Origin: Gammaproteobacteria bacterium
GTDB taxonomy: Bacteria; Pseudomonadota; Gammaproteobacteria; Eutrophobiales; Eutrophobiaceae
NCBI GenBank assembly: GCA_012270695.1
Contig: JAAXHV010000241.1
Coordinates: 1-28,316, forward strand
Reading direction: 5' to 3'
Length of the DNA: 28,316 bases
Shown here: positions 6,182-28,316 of the stretch, piece after piece
How the letters are laid out: each line of letters opens with the position of its first letter
How positions within the stretch are numbered: the first letter of the stretch is position 1
Program-made: the position numbers and the translations under genes
The notes under the pieces: generated by a model
What the model saw: only the letters and a program-made list of their open reading frames with translations
Told to the model about the DNA's origin: nothing
Database searches by the model: none

Positions 6182-6322
6182 TACCTGATCAGCACACCCG
6201 CATTTGTTGATGATACTGGATTCGGCCCATGTAGTAAACGTGCGCCATTTTTAATGCTCCATGTTTAAAACACGCCGGCAGGTTTTCAGGCTGTGTATTA
6301 TGCAGTTGAAGTAGTTGCATGT

Positions 6323-6350
6323 TTGACAGCGTTGCGTCACTGATTATAAG
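6323..6350 (+). promoter_or_regulatory. Putative sigma70 promoter for the P450-sulfotransferase operon
   Basis: TTGACA (6323-6328), 16-nt spacer, TATAAG (6345-6350). It lies 16 nt upstream of ATG 6367, with GGA at 6356-6358. Confidence 0.6.
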
Positions 6351-6366
6351 ATTTTGGAAAAAACAG

Positions 6367-7728
6367 ATGCCAGCCATGACTAAAAAACTGCCTCCTGGCC
6401 CTAAAGGCACAGGTGTCCTGAATGTGCTGCGGCGTGTCCGGGACCCCTTAGGGTTTCTCTTTTCATTACATGAACAATACGGGGGGATTGTCTGCTTCCC
6501 GACTTTTTTCCGCAGAACATGCGTGGTGTTTGATGCCGATTTGATTAATGAGGTGCTCTCAGCACAACATTCATCATTCGAGAAGGGGCCTTTTGCCAAG
6601 TCCCTGGTAGAAAATCCAACAACGGGAACAGCGGAAGGAAAGGAGCACCAGCGCATGCGAAAGCTGGTGAGGCCACTCTATCTCAGGAATGCCCTGGAGG
6701 GGTACGGCAAGATCATGGTAGAAGCAGCAGGGCGATTACAGGAACATTGGCGTGATGGTGACACCGTGGACATTGCGACCAATATGCACGTTATGTCTCA
6801 AAACGTGGTATCCAGAACTTTTTTTGGGCAAGACACGACTTTTGACCCGAAACTCGTCGAGGAAATGGTACGCTCGGGTGGATGGTTGCTGATTCTTACC
6901 ATGTTGCCGTTCAGGAAGCTGATTGAACACTTGCCGCTACCGCATAATCGGCGTCTTGAGGAGCAGTATGCAGCGTTTGACCAGGTGGTTTACGACCTGA
7001 TCAAGAGAGCCCGCAACCAGGACGAAGAGCGCACCGACCTGGTATCGTTGCTGACTAACGCGCGGGATGAAGAAGGCATTGAGCAGCCTTTGAACGACAG
7101 GGAAATCAGGGATGAAACTCTTATCCAACTCTTTGCCGGATATGAAACGGTAGCAAACTCCATGGCCTGGTGTTTTTACCATCTCAGCCGGAATCCGGCA
7201 GCGCGAGAACGCATGGAGCAGGAAATCGACGAGGTTCTGGGTGGCAGGCTGCCTACCCCCGCGGATCACTCGAAACTGGTTTACACCCGCGCTGTTTTCG
7301 ACGAGTCGCTGCGTCTGAATCCCCCTCTCTATGTTGTTGGCCGCAGGGCCGTTGAGGATTGCGTTATCGGCGGCTATGACATTCCCAAGGGAACAGTGGT
7401 CCAGCCTGTTCTGTTGGCTCCTCACCTGAAAGAGAAATACTATCCCCAGGCCGATGAGTTCAAGCCGGAGCGCTGGCTCCAGGGAGTTAAGGCGCGACCA
7501 AAGAATGCCTACCTGCCGTTCTCGAGCGGTCCCCGGGCCTGTATTGGTTCGAATTACGCCAGGTTGGAAGCGATAACGACACTGGTCACCGTCAGCCAAC
7601 GCTGGCGGCTCGAAGTTATTTCGGATGATCCTCCGGAAGTCAGCGCGCTGATCTTATACCGGTTTAAACATGGTCTTCCGGTAAGGCTGCACAAACGCAA
7701 GTCAGCGCCTCTCGAAACGTCAGCTTAA
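6367..7728 (+). CDS. Cytochrome P450
   Basis: Motifs PPGP, I-helix AGYET, K-helix ESLR, FKPERW and haem-binding FSSGPRACIG. The ORF track starts at 6319, but the promoter inside those first codons favours ATG 6367 (or 6376). Confidence 0.96.
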   Translation: MPAMTKKLPPGPKGTGVLNVLRRVRDPLGFLFSLHEQYGGIVCFPTFFRRTCVVFDADLINEVLSAQHSSFEKGPFAKSLVENPTTGTAEGKEHQRMRKLVRPLYLRNALEGYGKIMVEAAGRLQEHWRDGDTVDIATNMHVMSQNVVSRTFFGQDTTFDPKLVEEMVRSGGWLLILTMLPFRKLIEHLPLPHNRRLEEQYAAFDQVVYDLIKRARNQDEERTDLVSLLTNARDEEGIEQPLNDREIRDETLIQLFAGYETVANSMAWCFYHLSRNPAARERMEQEIDEVLGGRLPTPADHSKLVYTRAVFDESLRLNPPLYVVGRRAVEDCVIGGYDIPKGTVVQPVLLAPHLKEKYYPQADEFKPERWLQGVKARPKNAYLPFSSGPRACIGSNYARLEAITTLVTVSQRWRLEVISDDPPEVSALILYRFKHGLPVRLHKRKSAPLETSA

Positions 7729-7736
7729 GTATCGGG

Positions 7737-8777
7737 ATGAAGCGGGTTACCACCATCCCGCCGGTTTTCGTCGTCGGCACCGGGCGCTGTGGTTCGACGA
7801 TGATATCCAAGGTGTTGAACCGTCACCCGGACGTGCTTAGCCTGTCCGAGTTCTTCGGCTTCCTCGAATTGAAGTGGTGCGTCTATCGCAGACGCAGCGG
7901 AGAGCAGATGTGGGACTTCTACAGCCGGCACCGAAACCGCACGCGTCTCATGTTGCGCGGGCACTACGAGGAATTGCTTTATCCGTTTGATAATGAGGAC
8001 GCCCGCTATACGCGGCGTAACTTACCTCCTATCCTGTGTACTACGCTCCCGAATCTCACCAGCCGTCACGAGGAGCTGTTCGATGAGCTCAGACCCTTTG
8101 TCCAGGCGCAGCCAAAGCAACGGCCGGCAGACCACTTCAGAAGTCTTTTCGAGTGGTTGTGTGAGCGCTTTGGACGGAAAATATGGGTTGAACGTTCCGG
8201 CACATCGTTGATGCTCGTATCGAAACTGATGCATGAGTTTCCTGACGCACGCTTCATACACATATATCGCGATGGACGGGAAGTAGCCATATCGATGAGC
8301 CGGCATTATCTTTTTCGCACCATCCTGGCCAACGTGATGCTGTTGCGGCGCTTCGGTGTTGACACCATCAAGATGATGGCTAACGGGAGACGCTGGCAGA
8401 AAATCAATCCCTGGTTGGAGTTGTTGGCAAACGGGCTGATAAATCCGAGCTGGCTGCCTTATGATAAAGCGGCGTTGTCTGACTATGCGGCATTCTGGCA
8501 GGTACAGATCGACATGACTCATGACCTTTTCAGCCAGCTTCCGGCCACCAGGTTGCTGAATATCAGGTTTGAAGACATGCTTGCACAGCCGGAAGAGCAA
8601 CTTCAACGCCTGATTCGCTTCATCGACCCGTCACTGGAAAATAAGACCTGGTTGCAGGAGGTGTCAGGGATCCCGCGCCCGGTACAGCCGAAGTTTGAAC
8701 AGCTCGGTGACTATGACAAAGCCGCGATCATTGCGGCATGCCGTGCCGGATTGGAAAGTCTCGACTACCCGGTCTAA
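7737..8777 (+). CDS. PAPS-dependent sulfotransferase (Sulfotransfer_3-like)
   Basis: 5'-PSB loop VGTGRCGSTM, HPDVLSLSE, 3'-PB motif IHIYRDGREVAISM, and RFEDMLAQPEE near the C terminus. Starts 8 nt after the P450 stop. Confidence 0.92.
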   Translation: MKRVTTIPPVFVVGTGRCGSTMISKVLNRHPDVLSLSEFFGFLELKWCVYRRRSGEQMWDFYSRHRNRTRLMLRGHYEELLYPFDNEDARYTRRNLPPILCTTLPNLTSRHEELFDELRPFVQAQPKQRPADHFRSLFEWLCERFGRKIWVERSGTSLMLVSKLMHEFPDARFIHIYRDGREVAISMSRHYLFRTILANVMLLRRFGVDTIKMMANGRRWQKINPWLELLANGLINPSWLPYDKAALSDYAAFWQVQIDMTHDLFSQLPATRLLNIRFEDMLAQPEEQLQRLIRFIDPSLENKTWLQEVSGIPRPVQPKFEQLGDYDKAAIIAACRAGLESLDYPV

Positions 8778-9973
8778 TACTCGATTGACTGCTCCACCCT
8801 GACATGGTCCGGCAACTGGTACTTGATATCGTCCAGCATGGACGCTTCGAGTAAAAAAACAAAGTTTTGGCCGCGCCACTTATTGGCAAAGTCCGGAGCC
8901 GCCTTATGAGACAAACCGTACATTTGGCGTAGCAATCGCAGGGTCTGCAGAAACCCTGCAGTATTACATTTTGGTAACGCCAGCTTGTCCGCCAACTCGT
9001 TGCCAAGTACCGCGCGGGAGACCCGGAATACATGCTTCAGCATTTTTTCCTGGTCTGCCGGGTGGATCTTACCCGCAATCTCAGGTAAAGCCCGCACCAG
9101 GGCATTGGCAATCATCGCCGATTCCTTCGATGGTGGCGGTTCGCATATCCCGGCGATTTTTAGAAATTCACGGGTTTTGGCCTCGTCACCCTCGAACAAC
9201 AGGGCTTCGGGGGTCCCGACCAGGTAGGAGGCGTAACGCCAGATTTGCATGAAGCTATTGCGCGTCTTCTTGTTCATGCGCGCCCCGAGTTTGCGCGCGT
9301 TCTCCAGCATGGTAGCGGAGAAGTTCGCGGAAGCAAGCCCCTGGTGAGCGGCGCTGATTGGCTCACCCCAACTTGCTGCGTTCCAATCTTCCGATTCCCG
9401 AATCAGCTTCCTGAGCCGCGCATGCACCAGCCGGATGCGCACAGACAAACGCCAACCGTCCCCCTGGTCCACCAGCGCGCCAGGGAGCATAATTTCAACA
9501 AAGTGCCTGGTATTTTGTCTTATCCGCCGCAGGCCAAAATCGCTGACCACCCGGCCGGTTGCATGGAATGACTTAGCGATCAGGCTGGCAGCATTTTGCA
9601 CCGTGACCAGGAAAAATGCAGGTATAAACAAATCCGAATGTTCGTGGAAACTGCGACGGCCTGCCTCGAATTTCTCCGGTTCCAACCAGGCCGGTGGTTG
9701 TTTCATCTCCTCAAAAAAATCACGCAGACTCTTCGGCGCCTGCGCTAAAACCTCTTCATTTCCCTGCATCCCAGCCATGATGAACCTGTGTTCCTGTTGC
9801 TGGGTTAAATCTGCCAACTCCTCCATCAGGGAGTCGGCTATGGGGTCACCAACAGTTATATGCTCGATATATGTTTCAGCGAGTCCGGGATTCAGCTTTT
9901 TTGCCTTTTCGTACCCGTCCTCAAAGGCAGTGGGCACTGTCAAGTTGGAATTGTCAGAGATAAATCCTGCCAT
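8774..9973 (-). CDS. MpaB/Lcp (rubber oxygenase catalytic domain, DUF2236) family haem oxygenase
   Basis: 399 aa. GDPIAD, PPAWL, RRIRQNTR and RIRLVHARLR with Arg-to-His spacing of 34 residues as in Lcp, PISAAHQ, QIWRYASYLVG. No obvious Tat or Sec signal. Confidence 0.85.
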   Translation of the reverse strand: MAGFISDNSNLTVPTAFEDGYEKAKKLNPGLAETYIEHITVGDPIADSLMEELADLTQQQEHRFIMAGMQGNEEVLAQAPKSLRDFFEEMKQPPAWLEPEKFEAGRRSFHEHSDLFIPAFFLVTVQNAASLIAKSFHATGRVVSDFGLRRIRQNTRHFVEIMLPGALVDQGDGWRLSVRIRLVHARLRKLIRESEDWNAASWGEPISAAHQGLASANFSATMLENARKLGARMNKKTRNSFMQIWRYASYLVGTPEALLFEGDEAKTREFLKIAGICEPPPSKESAMIANALVRALPEIAGKIHPADQEKMLKHVFRVSRAVLGNELADKLALPKCNTAGFLQTLRLLRQMYGLSHKAAPDFANKWRGQNFVFLLEASMLDDIKYQLPDHVRVEQSIEY

Positions 9974-24269: not shown

Positions 24270-25370
24270 ATGACCGAGAGAGCGCCATTCCGGGCAGACC
24301 AGGTGGGCAGCTTATTGCGACCGGCCCGCTTGAAAGCCGCCCGCACAGATTTTGAAAACGGCAAAACAGGTGCGGAAACTCTGAAATCGATTGAAGATCA
24401 ATGCGTCCGTGAAGTGGTTGCGCGCCAGGAGTCTGCTGGTCTGCAAGCCGTTACCGACGGGGAGTTCAGGCGTGCCTGGTGGCACTTTGATTACCTTGCC
24501 GGACTGGACGGCGTTGAATTGGTCGAGAGTGAGCATGGCATCCAGTTTCACGGGGTGCAGACAAAGTCGAAAACCATCACGGTCAGCGGCAGAGTCGATT
24601 TTGATCAACACTATATGCTGGGCCACTTTCGTTTTCTACACAGCGTTGCCGGCGTCACGCCCAAGATGACCATCCCGGCGCCGTCGGTCCTGCATTTTCG
24701 TGGGGGAAGAGACTCCATCAGCAAAGACGTTTACCCGGGGCTGGACGAGTTCTTTGCGGATACGGCGGAGGCTTATCGTAAGGCCGTGCACGCGTTCTAC
24801 GCCGCCGGCTGCCGCTACCTGCAATTCGACGACACGGTGTGGGCCTATCTTTGCTCTGCAAAAGAACGGCAGGCAGCGCGCGACCGCGGCGACGACCCCG
24901 AACCGTTGCCGCGCATTTATACGGATATGATCAATCACGCCCTGAAAGACAAACCGACGGATATGGTGGTGACCACCCACGTCTGCCGCGGCAATTTTCG
25001 TTCAAGCTGGATCGCGGAAGGCGGTTATGAGCCGGTTGCGGAGACCCTGTTGGGGGGAACCGCTTATGACGGTTATTTCCTGGAATACGACACCGAACGC
25101 GCCGGTGGCTTCGAGCCGTTACGCTTCCTGCCGAAGGGCGACAAGCGCGTTGTACTGGGTCTGGTGACCTCCAAGTCAGGTGAACTGGAAGACAGGGACG
25201 CCATCAAGCGGCGCATTGATGAAGCGGCCCGCTTTGCCGACCCTGACCAGTTCTGCCTCAGTCCGCAATGCGGCTTCGCCTCCACCGAGGAAGGCAATAT
25301 ACTGAGCGAAGACCAGCAGTGGAAAAAACTGGAAATGATCGTCGGACTGACCCGCGCAATGTGGGGCTGA
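24270..25370 (+). CDS. Core (single-barrel) cobalamin-independent methionine synthase-like Zn enzyme, YxjG/YxjH-like
   Basis: 366 aa. VGSLLRP, TDGEFRR, and Zn ligands in HVCRGN, FLEYD and SPQCGF. Lacks the N-terminal folate-binding barrel of full MetE. Confidence 0.9.
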   Translation: MTERAPFRADQVGSLLRPARLKAARTDFENGKTGAETLKSIEDQCVREVVARQESAGLQAVTDGEFRRAWWHFDYLAGLDGVELVESEHGIQFHGVQTKSKTITVSGRVDFDQHYMLGHFRFLHSVAGVTPKMTIPAPSVLHFRGGRDSISKDVYPGLDEFFADTAEAYRKAVHAFYAAGCRYLQFDDTVWAYLCSAKERQAARDRGDDPEPLPRIYTDMINHALKDKPTDMVVTTHVCRGNFRSSWIAEGGYEPVAETLLGGTAYDGYFLEYDTERAGGFEPLRFLPKGDKRVVLGLVTSKSGELEDRDAIKRRIDEAARFADPDQFCLSPQCGFASTEEGNILSEDQQWKKLEMIVGLTRAMWG

Positions 25371-25415: not shown

Positions 25416-26432
25416 TTAGAACGTCGCAGGGACCGGTGGCAGTTCGCCTGCGGCGTAGCGTTTCTCCAGGCCCGGTGTCAGATTTTCCCAGACCAGCAGC
25501 ATGGAACGTTTCGGAGAAAAGCCGCGATGGCGTATATCCGCCGGCATACAGGCCACGTCCCCGGCCTTCATGGTGACCACGGACATGGGCGCGGCGGTAT
25601 CTTTGTCCGCTACTTTCCAGGTAATCTCATCGGACATCTGGATAAACCATTCCACCCGGTCATTGCCGTGGTCCACCGGCAGGATATGCTCTTCCGACGT
25701 CGGGCAGTAAGCGCTGCTCCTGACCACGGAAACGACGGACGGATTCCAGGTGACTGGTGAGCGGGACAGGTACTTGAACAGGTTGAACCCCGCCAGTTGA
25801 CCTTCAAATCCGGCTTCGGCATGTACTTCCGGTTCGGACTGGTCCACGTCTGCGAACTGCCGGTTAACTAGTCGTCCATTTTCATCGGAGCGTATGGGAC
25901 TATCGCCGGGCAGGCTGACGAAACGAGCAGCCAGTTCCCGTTGGAAATTGACGGCTTCATCGTTGTTACCGTTTTTGGGTCCGCGCGCGCTGCCGGTCTC
26001 CAGGGGGGCGGCGAAGGGGTCAAAGCCAGCATTGGTCCAATCTGAGAGCAGAGACTTGAAACAGGCCAGCATTACGCCTGCCTCAAAGCGTTCGGTAAAG
26101 TCCGTACCGGAATCCTTATAGGCCTGGTTATAGGCACCCATAAAGACGTCAACGCTGCCGTAATTATTCACCGTGCCGAATACCTCATCGAAGTTGACCC
26201 AGCCGTAGAAAAAGCCCCAGGCCACGTCCCGCATAAGAGAGCGCAGAAAATTCTCCACGTCCATCACGTGAGTCCCGGTCGGACACTGGATACGGGCAAA
26301 ATATTCATCCCGTTGAAACGTGAACGAGCCGATTTCAAAACGTTTGTAACCGGTGGTCGGATGTGGCGCGCTTTCCCGGTGCGCTTCGGTAAGAACCGGC
26401 AATTCAGTCATTTTTTCAGCTGTGGCTGCCAT
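25416..26432 (-). CDS. hqdB: Hydroquinone 1,2-dioxygenase large (beta, catalytic) subunit, HapD/PnpD/HqdB family
   Basis: FLRSLMRDVAWGFFYGWVNFD, ILPVDHGNDRVEWF, DIRHRG, RSMLLVWEN. His, Glu(+6), His(+47) match the Fe(II) ligand spacing of PnpD. Confidence 0.92.
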   Translation of the reverse strand: MAATAEKMTELPVLTEAHRESAPHPTTGYKRFEIGSFTFQRDEYFARIQCPTGTHVMDVENFLRSLMRDVAWGFFYGWVNFDEVFGTVNNYGSVDVFMGAYNQAYKDSGTDFTERFEAGVMLACFKSLLSDWTNAGFDPFAAPLETGSARGPKNGNNDEAVNFQRELAARFVSLPGDSPIRSDENGRLVNRQFADVDQSEPEVHAEAGFEGQLAGFNLFKYLSRSPVTWNPSVVSVVRSSAYCPTSEEHILPVDHGNDRVEWFIQMSDEITWKVADKDTAAPMSVVTMKAGDVACMPADIRHRGFSPKRSMLLVWENLTPGLEKRYAAGELPPVPATF

Positions 26433-26450
26433 GATAATTTCCCCTTTATG

Positions 26451-26951
26451 TCAGTGCTGGCAGATCTCCGCCCACTTCTCGACGGACTCATCGCCAAGTA
26501 AAGTTTGCAGTAATATCACGCTTAACTCGCCGGCACGAAACTGGTAGGCCGCGCCGGCCGGCAACAGGACCAAGTGGCCCCGCGTCGCCTTGATATGGCC
26601 CATGACCTGACCTTCCGGCTGACCAGCCAGTTTCACGGACCCCTCCTTCTCCGCCGGTGGAACCAGGCCACTGTCTGCAGGTTGAACAAACCGGGTTTCC
26701 ATGCTGCCCTGCATGAGCAGCGCGGTCTCATCATGACTGCATATATACCAGGAACTGTCGCCTTCGGCGCGGATACACTCGATGGTGTTCTCCAGGTTTT
26801 TAGCTATGACAACCCGCTCCCAGGGTTCTGCGTTGCCGGCTACCTCGTACATATTGGAAAACAGGTAATCCCGGGCTTCCTCATTGCCGGTAATTTCAAC
26901 GCCACCCTTGTCGTACTTGTCAATACTGCCGAATACGGTTGTTACGGACAT
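26451..26951 (-). CDS. hqdA: Hydroquinone 1,2-dioxygenase small (alpha) subunit, HapC/PnpC/HqdA family
   Basis: TVFGSIDKYDKGGVEI, YLFSNMYEVA, HDETAL, GHLVLLPAGAAYQF. 166 aa, directly upstream of the large subunit, GAGGGAG SD. Confidence 0.9.
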   Translation of the reverse strand: MSVTTVFGSIDKYDKGGVEITGNEEARDYLFSNMYEVAGNAEPWERVVIAKNLENTIECIRAEGDSSWYICSHDETALLMQGSMETRFVQPADSGLVPPAEKEGSVKLAGQPEGQVMGHIKATRGHLVLLPAGAAYQFRAGELSVILLQTLLGDESVEKWAEICQH

Positions 26952-26988
26952 GGTCTCCCTCTAAAGGTCATTAAGGAACTCAGCTTAA

Positions 26989-27006
26989 CATATTAGACAA
27001 AATATG
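26989..27006. promoter_or_regulatory. Inverted repeat upstream of hqdA, candidate operator
   Basis: CATATT-AGACAA-AATATG, a perfect 6-6-6 inverted repeat starting about 37 nt upstream of the hqdA ATG. Confidence 0.35.
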
Positions 27007-27027
27007 AGGCACTGCAGGCGACACATT

Positions 27028-28023
27028 TTACCCGCTCCCATCTGCAGATAACAAATGCCGTTCATGGGGCGCCTCGGGGTGAAAATCTGGTCCTACGGGA
27101 ACTATGCCGGTCGGGTTCACCATGCTGTGACTGCCAAAATAAGACTTTTTGATATGTTCCATGTTAATCGTTTCCGCTACCCCGGGCTGTTGGTAGAGAT
27201 CACGGGTATAGGCCCATAAATTCGGATAATCGACCAGTCGTTTTCTATTACATTTAAAATGGCTCACGTACACCGGGTCGAACCGGATTAGCGTAGTGAA
27301 CAAACGCCAGTCCGCCTCGGTGATCCGACTACCGGTCAGGTAGCGGCGGTTTTGCAGACTGTCTTCAAGCCATTCCAAGGTATCAAACAACGGATAGACC
27401 GCTTCTTCATAAGCTTCCTGGGTGGTGGCAAAACCGGCCCGGTACACGCCGTTATTCAGGGTTTTGAACACCCGGCTGTTGATCGCATCGATCTCATCCC
27501 GCAGGTGTTCCGGGTAATAATCACCCTGCCTGGCGCCGGCCCCATCGAATGCGCTGTTGAACATGCGGATGATTTCCGATGATTCATTGGAAACGATGGT
27601 GTTGCTGCGTTTATCCCATAAGGCCGGTACGGTGACTCTGCCGGAATACCCGGGGTCTGCAGCAGTGTAGATTTCGTAATAATATTTCGCGTTAAACATC
27701 GGGTCGGGGATAACGCCGTCACCCGGTTCAAACGTCCAGCCGTGCTCGCCCAGGTGCCAATGGACCACGGAAAGGGAGATCATCCCTTCAAGACCTTTAA
27801 TACTGCGGTAGATCATGGTGCGGTTGGCCCAGGGACAGGCATGGGAGACATACAGGTGATAGCGATCAGCCTCAGCCTTGAACCCTCCTGTACCGGAAGG
27901 TCCTGGTGAACCGTCTTTGGTTACCCAGTTACGGAACCGGGATTCAGAACGTATGAACCGTCCTTGATTGGACTCGGTGTCATACCATTCATCCTGCCAT
28001 TTGCCTTCTACCAATAGACCCAT
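27028..28023 (-). CDS. yqjG: Glutathionyl-hydroquinone reductase (Xi/omega-like GST, YqjG/PcpF family)
   Basis: MGLLVEGKW, RYHLYVSHACPWANR (active-site CPWA), RVTVPALWD, IVSNESSEI, NNGVYRAGF, TLIRFDPVY, NPTGIVP. True start is ATG 28023, with AGGA upstream. Confidence 0.95.
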   Translation of the reverse strand: MGLLVEGKWQDEWYDTESNQGRFIRSESRFRNWVTKDGSPGPSGTGGFKAEADRYHLYVSHACPWANRTMIYRSIKGLEGMISLSVVHWHLGEHGWTFEPGDGVIPDPMFNAKYYYEIYTAADPGYSGRVTVPALWDKRSNTIVSNESSEIIRMFNSAFDGAGARQGDYYPEHLRDEIDAINSRVFKTLNNGVYRAGFATTQEAYEEAVYPLFDTLEWLEDSLQNRRYLTGSRITEADWRLFTTLIRFDPVYVSHFKCNRKRLVDYPNLWAYTRDLYQQPGVAETINMEHIKKSYFGSHSMVNPTGIVPVGPDFHPEAPHERHLLSADGSG

Positions 28024-28059
28024 CTCATTTTCCTGAAACGTGAATGTCAAAGGCGCTAT

Positions 28060-28068
28060 AGTATAACA
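28060..28068 (-). promoter_or_regulatory. Putative extended -10 promoter for the GS-hydroquinone reductase gene
   Basis: The minus strand reads TG-T-TATACT, about 37 nt upstream of ATG 28023. No good -35 seen. Confidence 0.4.
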
Positions 28069-28104
28069 CCTTACCGGTTTTACTTTCTGCGGGGGGATGT
28101 TATG

Positions 28105-28194
28105 TTAAGGAAGCTCTGATCAAGTCCATCCAGGACTTGTCAGAGACGCTACATCCCTGTACCGTAGGAACCTGTGGCTTAACAGGTTCCTTAA
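28105..28194. mobile_element. Putative MITE-like palindromic element, 82 bp flanked by TTAA
   Basis: TTAA (28105-28108), then GGAAGCTCTGAT...TTAACAGGTTCC (28109-28190), then TTAA (28191-28194). The ends match at 8 of 12 positions as inverted repeats, and there are three internal hairpins. Confidence 0.45.
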
Positions 28195-28234
28195 CGTTGA
28201 TTCCCGCAATATACTGAAGACCAGGCAAACATAC

Positions 28235-28316
28235 ATGAGTATTAACCAAAAATTACGCGAGACTGATCAGCAGACAGCCGGACCCACTGGCAAAAAAATG
28301 CGCAAGGATGCCCTGC
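28235..28316 (+). CDS. Start of a CDS truncated by the window edge, possibly a TetR-family regulator
   Basis: MSINQKLRETDQQTAGPTGKKMRKDAL. RKDA resembles the R(A/K)DAxRN that precedes many TetR HTH domains. Only 27 codons are visible. Confidence 0.3.
   Translation, partial: MSINQKLRETDQQTAGPTGKKMRKDAL

Follow-up and report, generated by a model that had tools for sequence, protein, structure and literature searches.

The 28,316-bp window is an entire contig of a 3.26-Mb metagenome-assembled genome (MAG; G000, 762 contigs, 89% complete, 6% contamination) from a gammaproteobacterium. Near its end lie three co-oriented genes: one for an Xi-class glutathione S-transferase (GST), followed by hqdA and hqdB, which encode the two subunits of a predicted hydroquinone 1,2-dioxygenase. 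With a probability of roughly two in three, these genes are one arm of a bidirectional, TetR-controlled hydroquinone catabolic cluster that carries the GST as an optional, salvage glutathionyl-hydroquinone reductase. The reading rests on the identities of the genes, on the layout of the cluster in close relatives, and on the linkage of the GST to hqdAB across genomes. The genes of the arm, in order of transcription, are the following.

27028..28023, minus strand: predicted Xi-class GST (glutathionyl-hydroquinone reductase, YqjG/PcpF-like, by similarity and motifs), first gene of the GST-hqdA-hqdB unit
26952..27027, minus strand: GST-hqdA spacer of 76 nt, with a ribosome-binding site (GGGAG) before hqdA
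26451..26951, minus strand: hqdA, predicted small subunit of a two-subunit (type II) hydroquinone 1,2-dioxygenase, 166 residues, by PDB matches
25416..26432, minus strand: hqdB, predicted large catalytic subunit of the hydroquinone 1,2-dioxygenase, 338 residues, by PF18191 and PDB matches

The GST matches the Pfam models GST_N_2 and GST_C_2. Its best full-length matches in the PDB are E. coli YqjG (3r3e, E 7.6e-134) and PcpF from Sphingobium (4fqu, E 1.2e-126), and Xi GSTs of poplar, yeast and fungi are among the further matches. In the alignment, the ATG at 28023 falls on Met1 of YqjG, and the TTG at 28050 chosen by the open reading frame finder represents an upstream extension. Counted from the ATG, the cysteine of the Cys-Pro-Trp-Ala motif (ACPWA) is residue 63, equivalent to Cys63 of YqjG. 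Tyrosines 194, 252, and 295 (203, 261, and 304 in P0001) align with those of YqjG and are spaced by 58 and 43 residues, matching the H-site tyrosine triad with 58/43 spacing of the Xi class (PMC6345682). By these sequence features, the product belongs to the Xi-class GSTs and is predicted to act as a glutathionyl-hydroquinone reductase. It shares ~60% identity with E. coli YqjG over the full length, together with the position of the catalytic cysteine and the tyrosine triad. YqjG, however, is as far as known a stand-alone general enzyme, whereas the window gene is a cluster-bound paralogue and congeners have a second Xi GST at another locus. G000 encodes GshB and a GCS2-type glutamate-cysteine ligase, the latter found in place of an E. 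coli-type GshA (PF04262), which was not found in this genome. Therefore, glutathione is probably made in G000.

Against the two solved two-subunit hydroquinone 1,2-dioxygenases, the hqdA product aligns with the small subunit of each, 5m21_A (E 8.6e-44) and 4zxa_A (E 1.7e-41); it has no Pfam model of its own in the Pfam search. The proteins of the unit share ~60% identity with solved structures. HqdB matches the large subunits 5m21_B (E 4.8e-135) and 4zxa_W (E 2.1e-128) and carries the PnpD N-terminal domain PF18191 (E 2.8e-53). Residues H255, N257, E261, and H302 of HqdB are invariant across an alignment of 20 diverse homologues (A1). These residues are the counterparts of the Fe(II) ligands of PnpD. 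The two subunit genes are adjacent, with a gap of 18 nt, as is usual for two-subunit dioxygenases of this kind, whose small and large subunits have ~165 and ~340 residues. By homology, hqdAB encode a two-subunit (type II) hydroquinone 1,2-dioxygenase of the HapCD/PnpCD/HqdAB group, for which ring cleavage is predicted. An earlier reading of the window from its letters alone (the sequence-only reading) had described three co-oriented genes, yqjG-like, hqdA, and hqdB, with intact motifs, and the coordinates, the CPWA motif, and the four invariant HqdB residues agree with it. It had also placed a convergent gene after hqdB, which is found as described.

24270-25370, plus strand: MetE-like methyltransferase, next gene 3' of hqdB, convergent

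The sequence-only reading saw no lower-pathway genes. This is literally true of the window and misleading, because only 293 nt lie between the GST and the contig end, which falls within codon 27 of a divergent gene; the absence is an assembly artefact.

28235..28316, plus strand: TetR-family regulator, first 27 codons, cut by the contig end; extension on contig C138, last 36 codons on contig C64

C138 (L005), a 1.6-kb contig of the same bin, is 96-97% identical to positions 27031-28316 of the window and would appear to be a strain variant binned together with it, not a duplicated copy. It extends the truncated divergent gene to 145 residues, with TetR_N and TetR_C_7 domains. The candidate identification of this gene at 28235 as the start of a maleylacetate reductase, as in L001, is thereby ruled out. 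C64 (L003) ends in 36 codons matching the C-terminus of the orthologous TetR of relatives. After the TetR gene, C64 encodes a 322-residue VOC-fold dioxygenase that is PcpA/LinE-like (PcpA 4huz, E 5.7e-78), then a maleylacetate reductase (3hl0, E 8e-91; 3w5s, E ~1e-90), and last the start of a 3-oxoacid CoA-transferase that continues on C520. The full-length orthologue of the transferase in the relative L001 (P0127, 84% identical to the C64 fragment) matches the pcaI and pcaJ models in one chain. In two relatives, L013 (HqdB 91% identical) and L175 (92%), the same seven-gene layout lies on contiguous DNA, with the CoA-transferase, reductase, PcpA-like, and TetR genes on one strand and GST, hqdA, and hqdB on the other. 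For G000 we infer the corresponding layout from sequence: Xi GST, hqdA, and hqdB would run in one direction from the control region, and TetR, the PcpA/LinE-like dioxygenase, maleylacetate reductase, and a fused 3-oxoadipate:succinyl-CoA transferase in the other.

The remaining enzyme of the route is encoded elsewhere. An aldehyde dehydrogenase on C44 (L004) matches PnpE, the gamma-hydroxymuconic semialdehyde dehydrogenase (4go3, E 5.8e-188), far above other aldehyde dehydrogenases. In four congeners, the PnpE orthologue is likewise not near the cluster: the distance is ~650 kb in G002, in G003 and G004 the two share a contig but stand at least hundreds of kilobases apart, and in G001 they are on different contigs. 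Its neighbours in G002 are a DUF4286-like gene and recQ. A conserved gene of the DUF4286-like kind, ~270 residues long, also follows the unlinked PnpE-type dehydrogenase on C44 (2273-3109) and in L097 (8183-8995). In the slightly more distant L002, L008, and L011, the PnpE-type dehydrogenase still stands directly after hqdB. By predicted function, every step from hydroquinone to 3-oxoadipyl-CoA is encoded, most of them just past the contig end. The search for hapE and hapF that the sequence-only reading had proposed thus finds both types, the dehydrogenase on C44 and the reductase on C64, and a lower pathway lying just beyond the window, which, together with independent regulation of the GST, it had named as fatal to its proposal, is largely what is seen. 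Its compact route without lower pathway does not survive, and its inference of detoxification rather than growth loses its basis with it.

The linkage of the GST to hqdAB was followed in a genus census of 22 congeners and G000. HqdB is present in 19 of the 22 congeners; among these 19, maleylacetate reductase is inside the cluster in 18 and the PcpA-like gene in 16. A GST of the cluster type (81-90% identity to that of the window) occurs in 11 of the 19 and in G000, that is, in 12 of 20 genomes. All 12 copies are found directly upstream of hqdAB, in the orientation of these genes and 570-920 bp from hqdB, and no cluster-type copy was found at any other locus in the census genomes. The three congeners that lack HqdB lack the cluster-type GST as well. 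In G011, only an 86%-identical GST fragment remains beside hqdA, evidence that the gene was lost there. A second Xi GST paralogue (53-54% identity) is found at an unrelated locus in 10 genomes. In the close relative L001, two genes, for a 617-residue protein listed as PF27383 (SF2091) and a family-2 glycosyltransferase, stand between GST and hqdA (6280-9275), indicating that the GST-hqdAB unit can be interrupted.

Beyond the genus, the forward survey covered the best 80 of ~590 HqdB-encoding stretches in species-representative genomes, with neighbours scored by tblastn; 76 of these 80 loci are outside the genus, and the neighbourhood was set at 10 kb. In most of the 76, hqdA, hqdB, dehydrogenase, and reductase genes follow one another in the canonical order. 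Two, L047 and L050, both from uncultured Alphaproteobacteria, carry an Xi GST, in the order GST, beta-keto-acid cleavage enzyme (BKACE), hqdA, hqdB, maleylacetate reductase. The reverse survey covered 71 metagenomic loci encoding the nearest relatives of the window GST. Only the two GSTs at 80% identity or above adjoin hqdAB, and no hqd genes were found near GSTs at 70% identity or below. In a quick maximum-likelihood tree with SH-aLRT supports, the hqd-linked GSTs form two separate clades, one gammaproteobacterial (support 99) and one made of the alphaproteobacterial pair (support 100). The supported branches between them require two origins of the hqd linkage. Exclusive adjacency and independent recruitment together make a chance neighbourhood very unlikely. 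The sequence-only reading had taken the GST and HqdAB as a unit and had asked for this neighbourhood survey; the pairing recurs in 11 congeners and two alphaproteobacterial loci and is not peculiar to this genome.

The BKACE-family gene between Xi GST and hqdA (L050 8483-9343, and in L047) may provide an alternative processing of 3-oxoadipate instead of CoA-transferase and thiolase. PcpA/LinE-type dioxygenases also lie within 10 kb of HqdAB in L020, L022, L052, L063, L067, L070, L072, and L076, besides the 16 congeners, so that clusters with two non-homologous dioxygenases recur across phyla, in several Gammaproteobacteria and in Acidimicrobiia. Among plasmids, none of the 60 Xi-GST-bearing records (60 of 150) is among the 23 HqdB-bearing records. 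The two plasmid Xi-GST neighbourhoods examined, both from cultured bacteria, contain WrbA or a MarR regulator and no dioxygenases.

The DNA between the genes is consistent with a common unit. The 76-nt spacer between GST and hqdA contains no terminator-like site, and its folding does not surpass that of shuffled sequence (z = 0.81). The corresponding gaps in relatives are mostly ~60-200 nt, with ~400 nt in G005. Upstream of the GST lies the region shared by the two arms.

28024..28234, no strand assigned: divergent control region from the TetR gene to the GST, with a conserved leader and an inserted repeat
~28094-28195, no strand assigned: interspersed repeat of ~80-100 nt, its halves found again on at least 20 contigs of the MAG

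In an alignment of the intergenic regions between TetR and GST or hqdA from the window, L013, and L015 (A2), a leader of ~60-70 nt at the start of the GST is conserved in the window and L013. L015, which has the TetR gene and lacks the GST, has the same conserved leader immediately 5' of hqdA. The place of the GST, at present or in the past, is therefore between the promoter region of hqdAB and hqdA itself. The repeat at 28094-28195 is an insertion, since the same intergenic region is without it in L013 and L015, and this supports its being a MITE-like element. Its halves occur on C13, C261, C696, C634, C64, C4, C760, and others, often split by an extra 60-100 nt. A copy lies in ~400 nt of extra DNA on C64 (~2860-2950) between the stop of the TetR gene and the start of the PcpA-like gene, which nearly abut in L013; a short open reading frame in this extra DNA may encode a stretch similar to an AAA-type ATPase N-terminus. 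A perfect 10-nt inverted repeat at 28166-28191 was considered as the TetR operator. It was not adopted, as it lies in or overlaps the multi-contig repeat and is absent from the intergenic regions of L013 and L015.

The proposed route is as follows. HqdAB would convert hydroquinone to 4-hydroxymuconic semialdehyde, which the PnpE/HapE-type dehydrogenase encoded elsewhere would convert to maleylacetate; maleylacetate reductase and the CoA-transferase would then lead maleylacetate into the 3-oxoadipate route. The PcpA-like enzyme would probably take substituted (halo- or alkyl-) hydroquinones. Benzoquinones, arising from autoxidation of hydroquinone or from an upstream monooxygenase, would add glutathione spontaneously. 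With a second glutathione, the GST would turn the glutathionyl (GS-) hydroquinone into free hydroquinone and glutathione disulfide (GSSG) and so return it to ring cleavage. The reduction of GS-hydroquinones to free hydroquinones is established chemistry of the family, from YqjG and PcpF. The GST would thus be a dedicated, dispensable paralogue made together with HqdAB, protecting the cell and recovering carbon. The idea that hydroquinones are recovered from GS-adducts for ring cleavage, put forward in the sequence-only reading, stands as a probable salvage role, while the compact detoxification setting in which it was placed does not.

Several observations weigh against this interpretation. 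The evidence for co-transcription of GST and hqdAB consists of their spacing and a leader in common. Between the window and C64 there is a gap of ~40 codons beyond the variant contig C138; the join across it was deduced, not assembled. In this genus, the gene for the semialdehyde dehydrogenase lies apart from the cluster, so that flux through HqdAB depends on a gene under separate control. G000's own cluster contains no enzyme that makes hydroquinone or benzoquinone. In three congeners (G005, G019, and G023 only), a flavin adenine dinucleotide (FAD)-dependent aromatic hydroxylase is inserted between the TetR and PcpA-like genes and could plausibly supply quinone or hydroquinone; its best match in G000 has 28% identity. 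This hydroxylase is found in three of the 12 clusters that have the GST and in none of the six without it that have judgeable spacing, numbers too few to carry meaning. The GST is missing from 8 of the 20 HqdB-bearing genomes of the genus, indicating that it is not required for the pathway and is an optional component. Outside the genus, an Xi GST lies within 10 kb of hqdAB in only 2 of the 76 loci.

The GST could instead have a working part in the pathway itself. We consider it unlikely that the GST, as a specialised paralogue bound to the cluster, makes glutathione addition and release a step of quinone catabolism, replacing a benzoquinone reductase and bringing about net dehalogenation of halogenated quinones. 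We regard as improbable the fuller version, in which addition and release stand in for the NAD(P)H-dependent benzoquinone reductase (PnpB/PcpD), dehalogenation resembles that by PcpC/LinD, and host-derived halo- or alkyl-quinones feed both dioxygenases. It fits the co-clustering of a PcpA-like dioxygenase, which is typical of chlorohydroquinone pathways, and the hydroxylase of the three congeners, which is of a broad group including quinone-forming phenol monooxygenases. Also compatible with it are the origin of at least one close relative, whose record is labelled as a sponge metagenome, and the gene content of the clusters: neither in that of G000 nor in the layouts of relatives was a reductase like PnpB or PcpD or a gene like PcpC or LinD seen, although no systematic search of the genome was made. 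However, eight congeners keep both dioxygenases without the GST, which therefore cannot be an obligatory step, and the cluster of G000 itself has no hydroxylase.

A further alternative is that the GST is merely a neighbour, a general redox or quinone-stress gene upstream of hqdAB with no specific coupling to ring cleavage. Its high similarity to the housekeeping YqjG, its loss from eight genomes that keep hqdAB, and the rarity of the pairing outside the genus would all be expected from such a gene. Nevertheless, this explanation is decidedly doubtful. All 12 copies of the paralogue adjoin hqdAB on the same strand with none elsewhere, genomes without hqdAB lack it too, 10 genomes have a distinct second paralogue at a different locus, and GST and hqdAB have a leader in common. 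Moreover, another GST lineage independently came to occupy the same place; since a genome of 3-5 Mb has about one Xi GST, its arrival by chance within a few kilobases of hqdA would be very unlikely to happen in two separate lineages. Least probable is a self-contained three-gene detoxification module that frees hydroquinones from GS-adducts and ring-cleaves them without a lower pathway, for protection and not growth, since the convergent gene 3' of hqdB, the unlinked dehydrogenase, the arm's own leader and promoter region, and the quinone-stress settings of Xi GSTs elsewhere (e.g., beside WrbA in Sphingopyxis indica) are outweighed by the PnpE orthologue in the genome and by the reductase and CoA-transferase directly across the TetR gene in G000 and in 18 of 19 congeners, the apparent compactness being an effect of the contig end.

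The preferred reading, a TetR-controlled catabolic cluster with a salvage GST, has partial counterparts among known systems. In the pentachlorophenol pathway, whose enzymes are given as PcpA-F, PcpF is included beside PcpA and PcpE, and the pcp genes are spread over two DNA fragments (PMC5741723), whereas the present genes form one cluster. This bears out the sequence-only reading in placing PcpF alongside PcpA; the dioxygenase it had set apart as unrelated in fact has a homologue in the present cluster. The two systems share an Xi-class GST, a PcpA-type dioxygenase, and a PcpE-type maleylacetate reductase, all three present in G000. They differ in that in the present cluster the GST stands first in a predicted operon with HqdAB, an unrelated two-subunit dioxygenase, and the regulator is of TetR type, whereas the pcp regulator is of LysR type. 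A PcpB-type phenol monooxygenase was not found in G000, and no PcpC or PcpD was seen in the present cluster layouts, for which no genome-wide search was made.

Adjacent subunit genes and a maleylacetate reductase are shared with the hap, pnp, and hqd clusters (HapCDEF of P. fluorescens ACB, PnpCDEF of Pseudomonas sp. WBC-3, and hqdRAB-CDEF of Sphingomonas sp. TTNP3 and Sphingobium amiense), the reductase lying within the cluster here as there, by the deduced join in G000. The pSAMIE_4 hqd cluster of S. amiense also has a divergent CoA-transferase as here; this characterised hqdRAB-CDEF cluster has no GST, unlike the present one. The canonical order hqdA-hqdB-dehydrogenase-reductase is broken up here: the reductase is divergent, and the dehydrogenase is not next to the dioxygenase, although the genome has one of PnpE type on C44. 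The present cluster has, in addition, an Xi GST in front of hqdA and a second, PcpA-like dioxygenase.

The lin lower pathway of Sphingobium japonicum UT26 (LinD-LinE-LinF-LinGH) likewise combines a glutathione-dependent enzyme with a PcpA/LinE-type dioxygenase, maleylacetate reductase, and 3-oxoadipate CoA-transferase, but LinD is a dehalogenating GST of another class and the pathway has no HqdAB. In the MhqR quinone-stress regulon of Bacillus subtilis, ring-cleaving hydroquinone-type dioxygenases stand beside quinone-handling enzymes, as here, for protection. That regulon, in contrast, is thiol-independent and has VOC-fold dioxygenases only, without an Xi GST or a lower pathway.

The concept of a glutathionyl-hydroquinone reductase supporting a hydroquinone pathway is known, as for PcpF, and, the GST pairing aside, the cluster as a whole is a larger, fairly ordinary hydroquinone-degradation cluster. 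The architecture, with an Xi GST first in an hqdAB operon and opposite an operon of PcpA-like dioxygenase, reductase, and CoA-transferase, appears not to have been described before. In the literature searched, no paper names both a glutathionyl-hydroquinone reductase and a hydroquinone dioxygenase, and none links GS-hydroquinone, benzoquinone, and nitrophenol; the papers on the TTNP3, KU-46, and Sphingobium clusters do not mention glutathione. This is consistent with the sequence-only reading, to which the pairing was not known as a described unit.

If, as we consider unlikely, the GST is a working step of quinone catabolism, host-associated marine bacteria could consume substituted quinones or hydroquinones via two different ring-cleavage enzymes. 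The GST-hqdAB operon design was reached independently in two unrelated lineages. For the interpretation of such genomes, a pathway that seems to be missing beside a contig end should be checked in relatives first. The association suggests that hydroquinone catabolism pays a real price for substrate lost as glutathione adducts. Glutathionyl-hydroquinone reductases are widespread, and few have an assigned physiological role, the "maintenance" role of PcpF in pentachlorophenol degradation being the main example. A paralogue tied to a ring-cleavage operon, and tied twice, would give this family a concrete, testable context.

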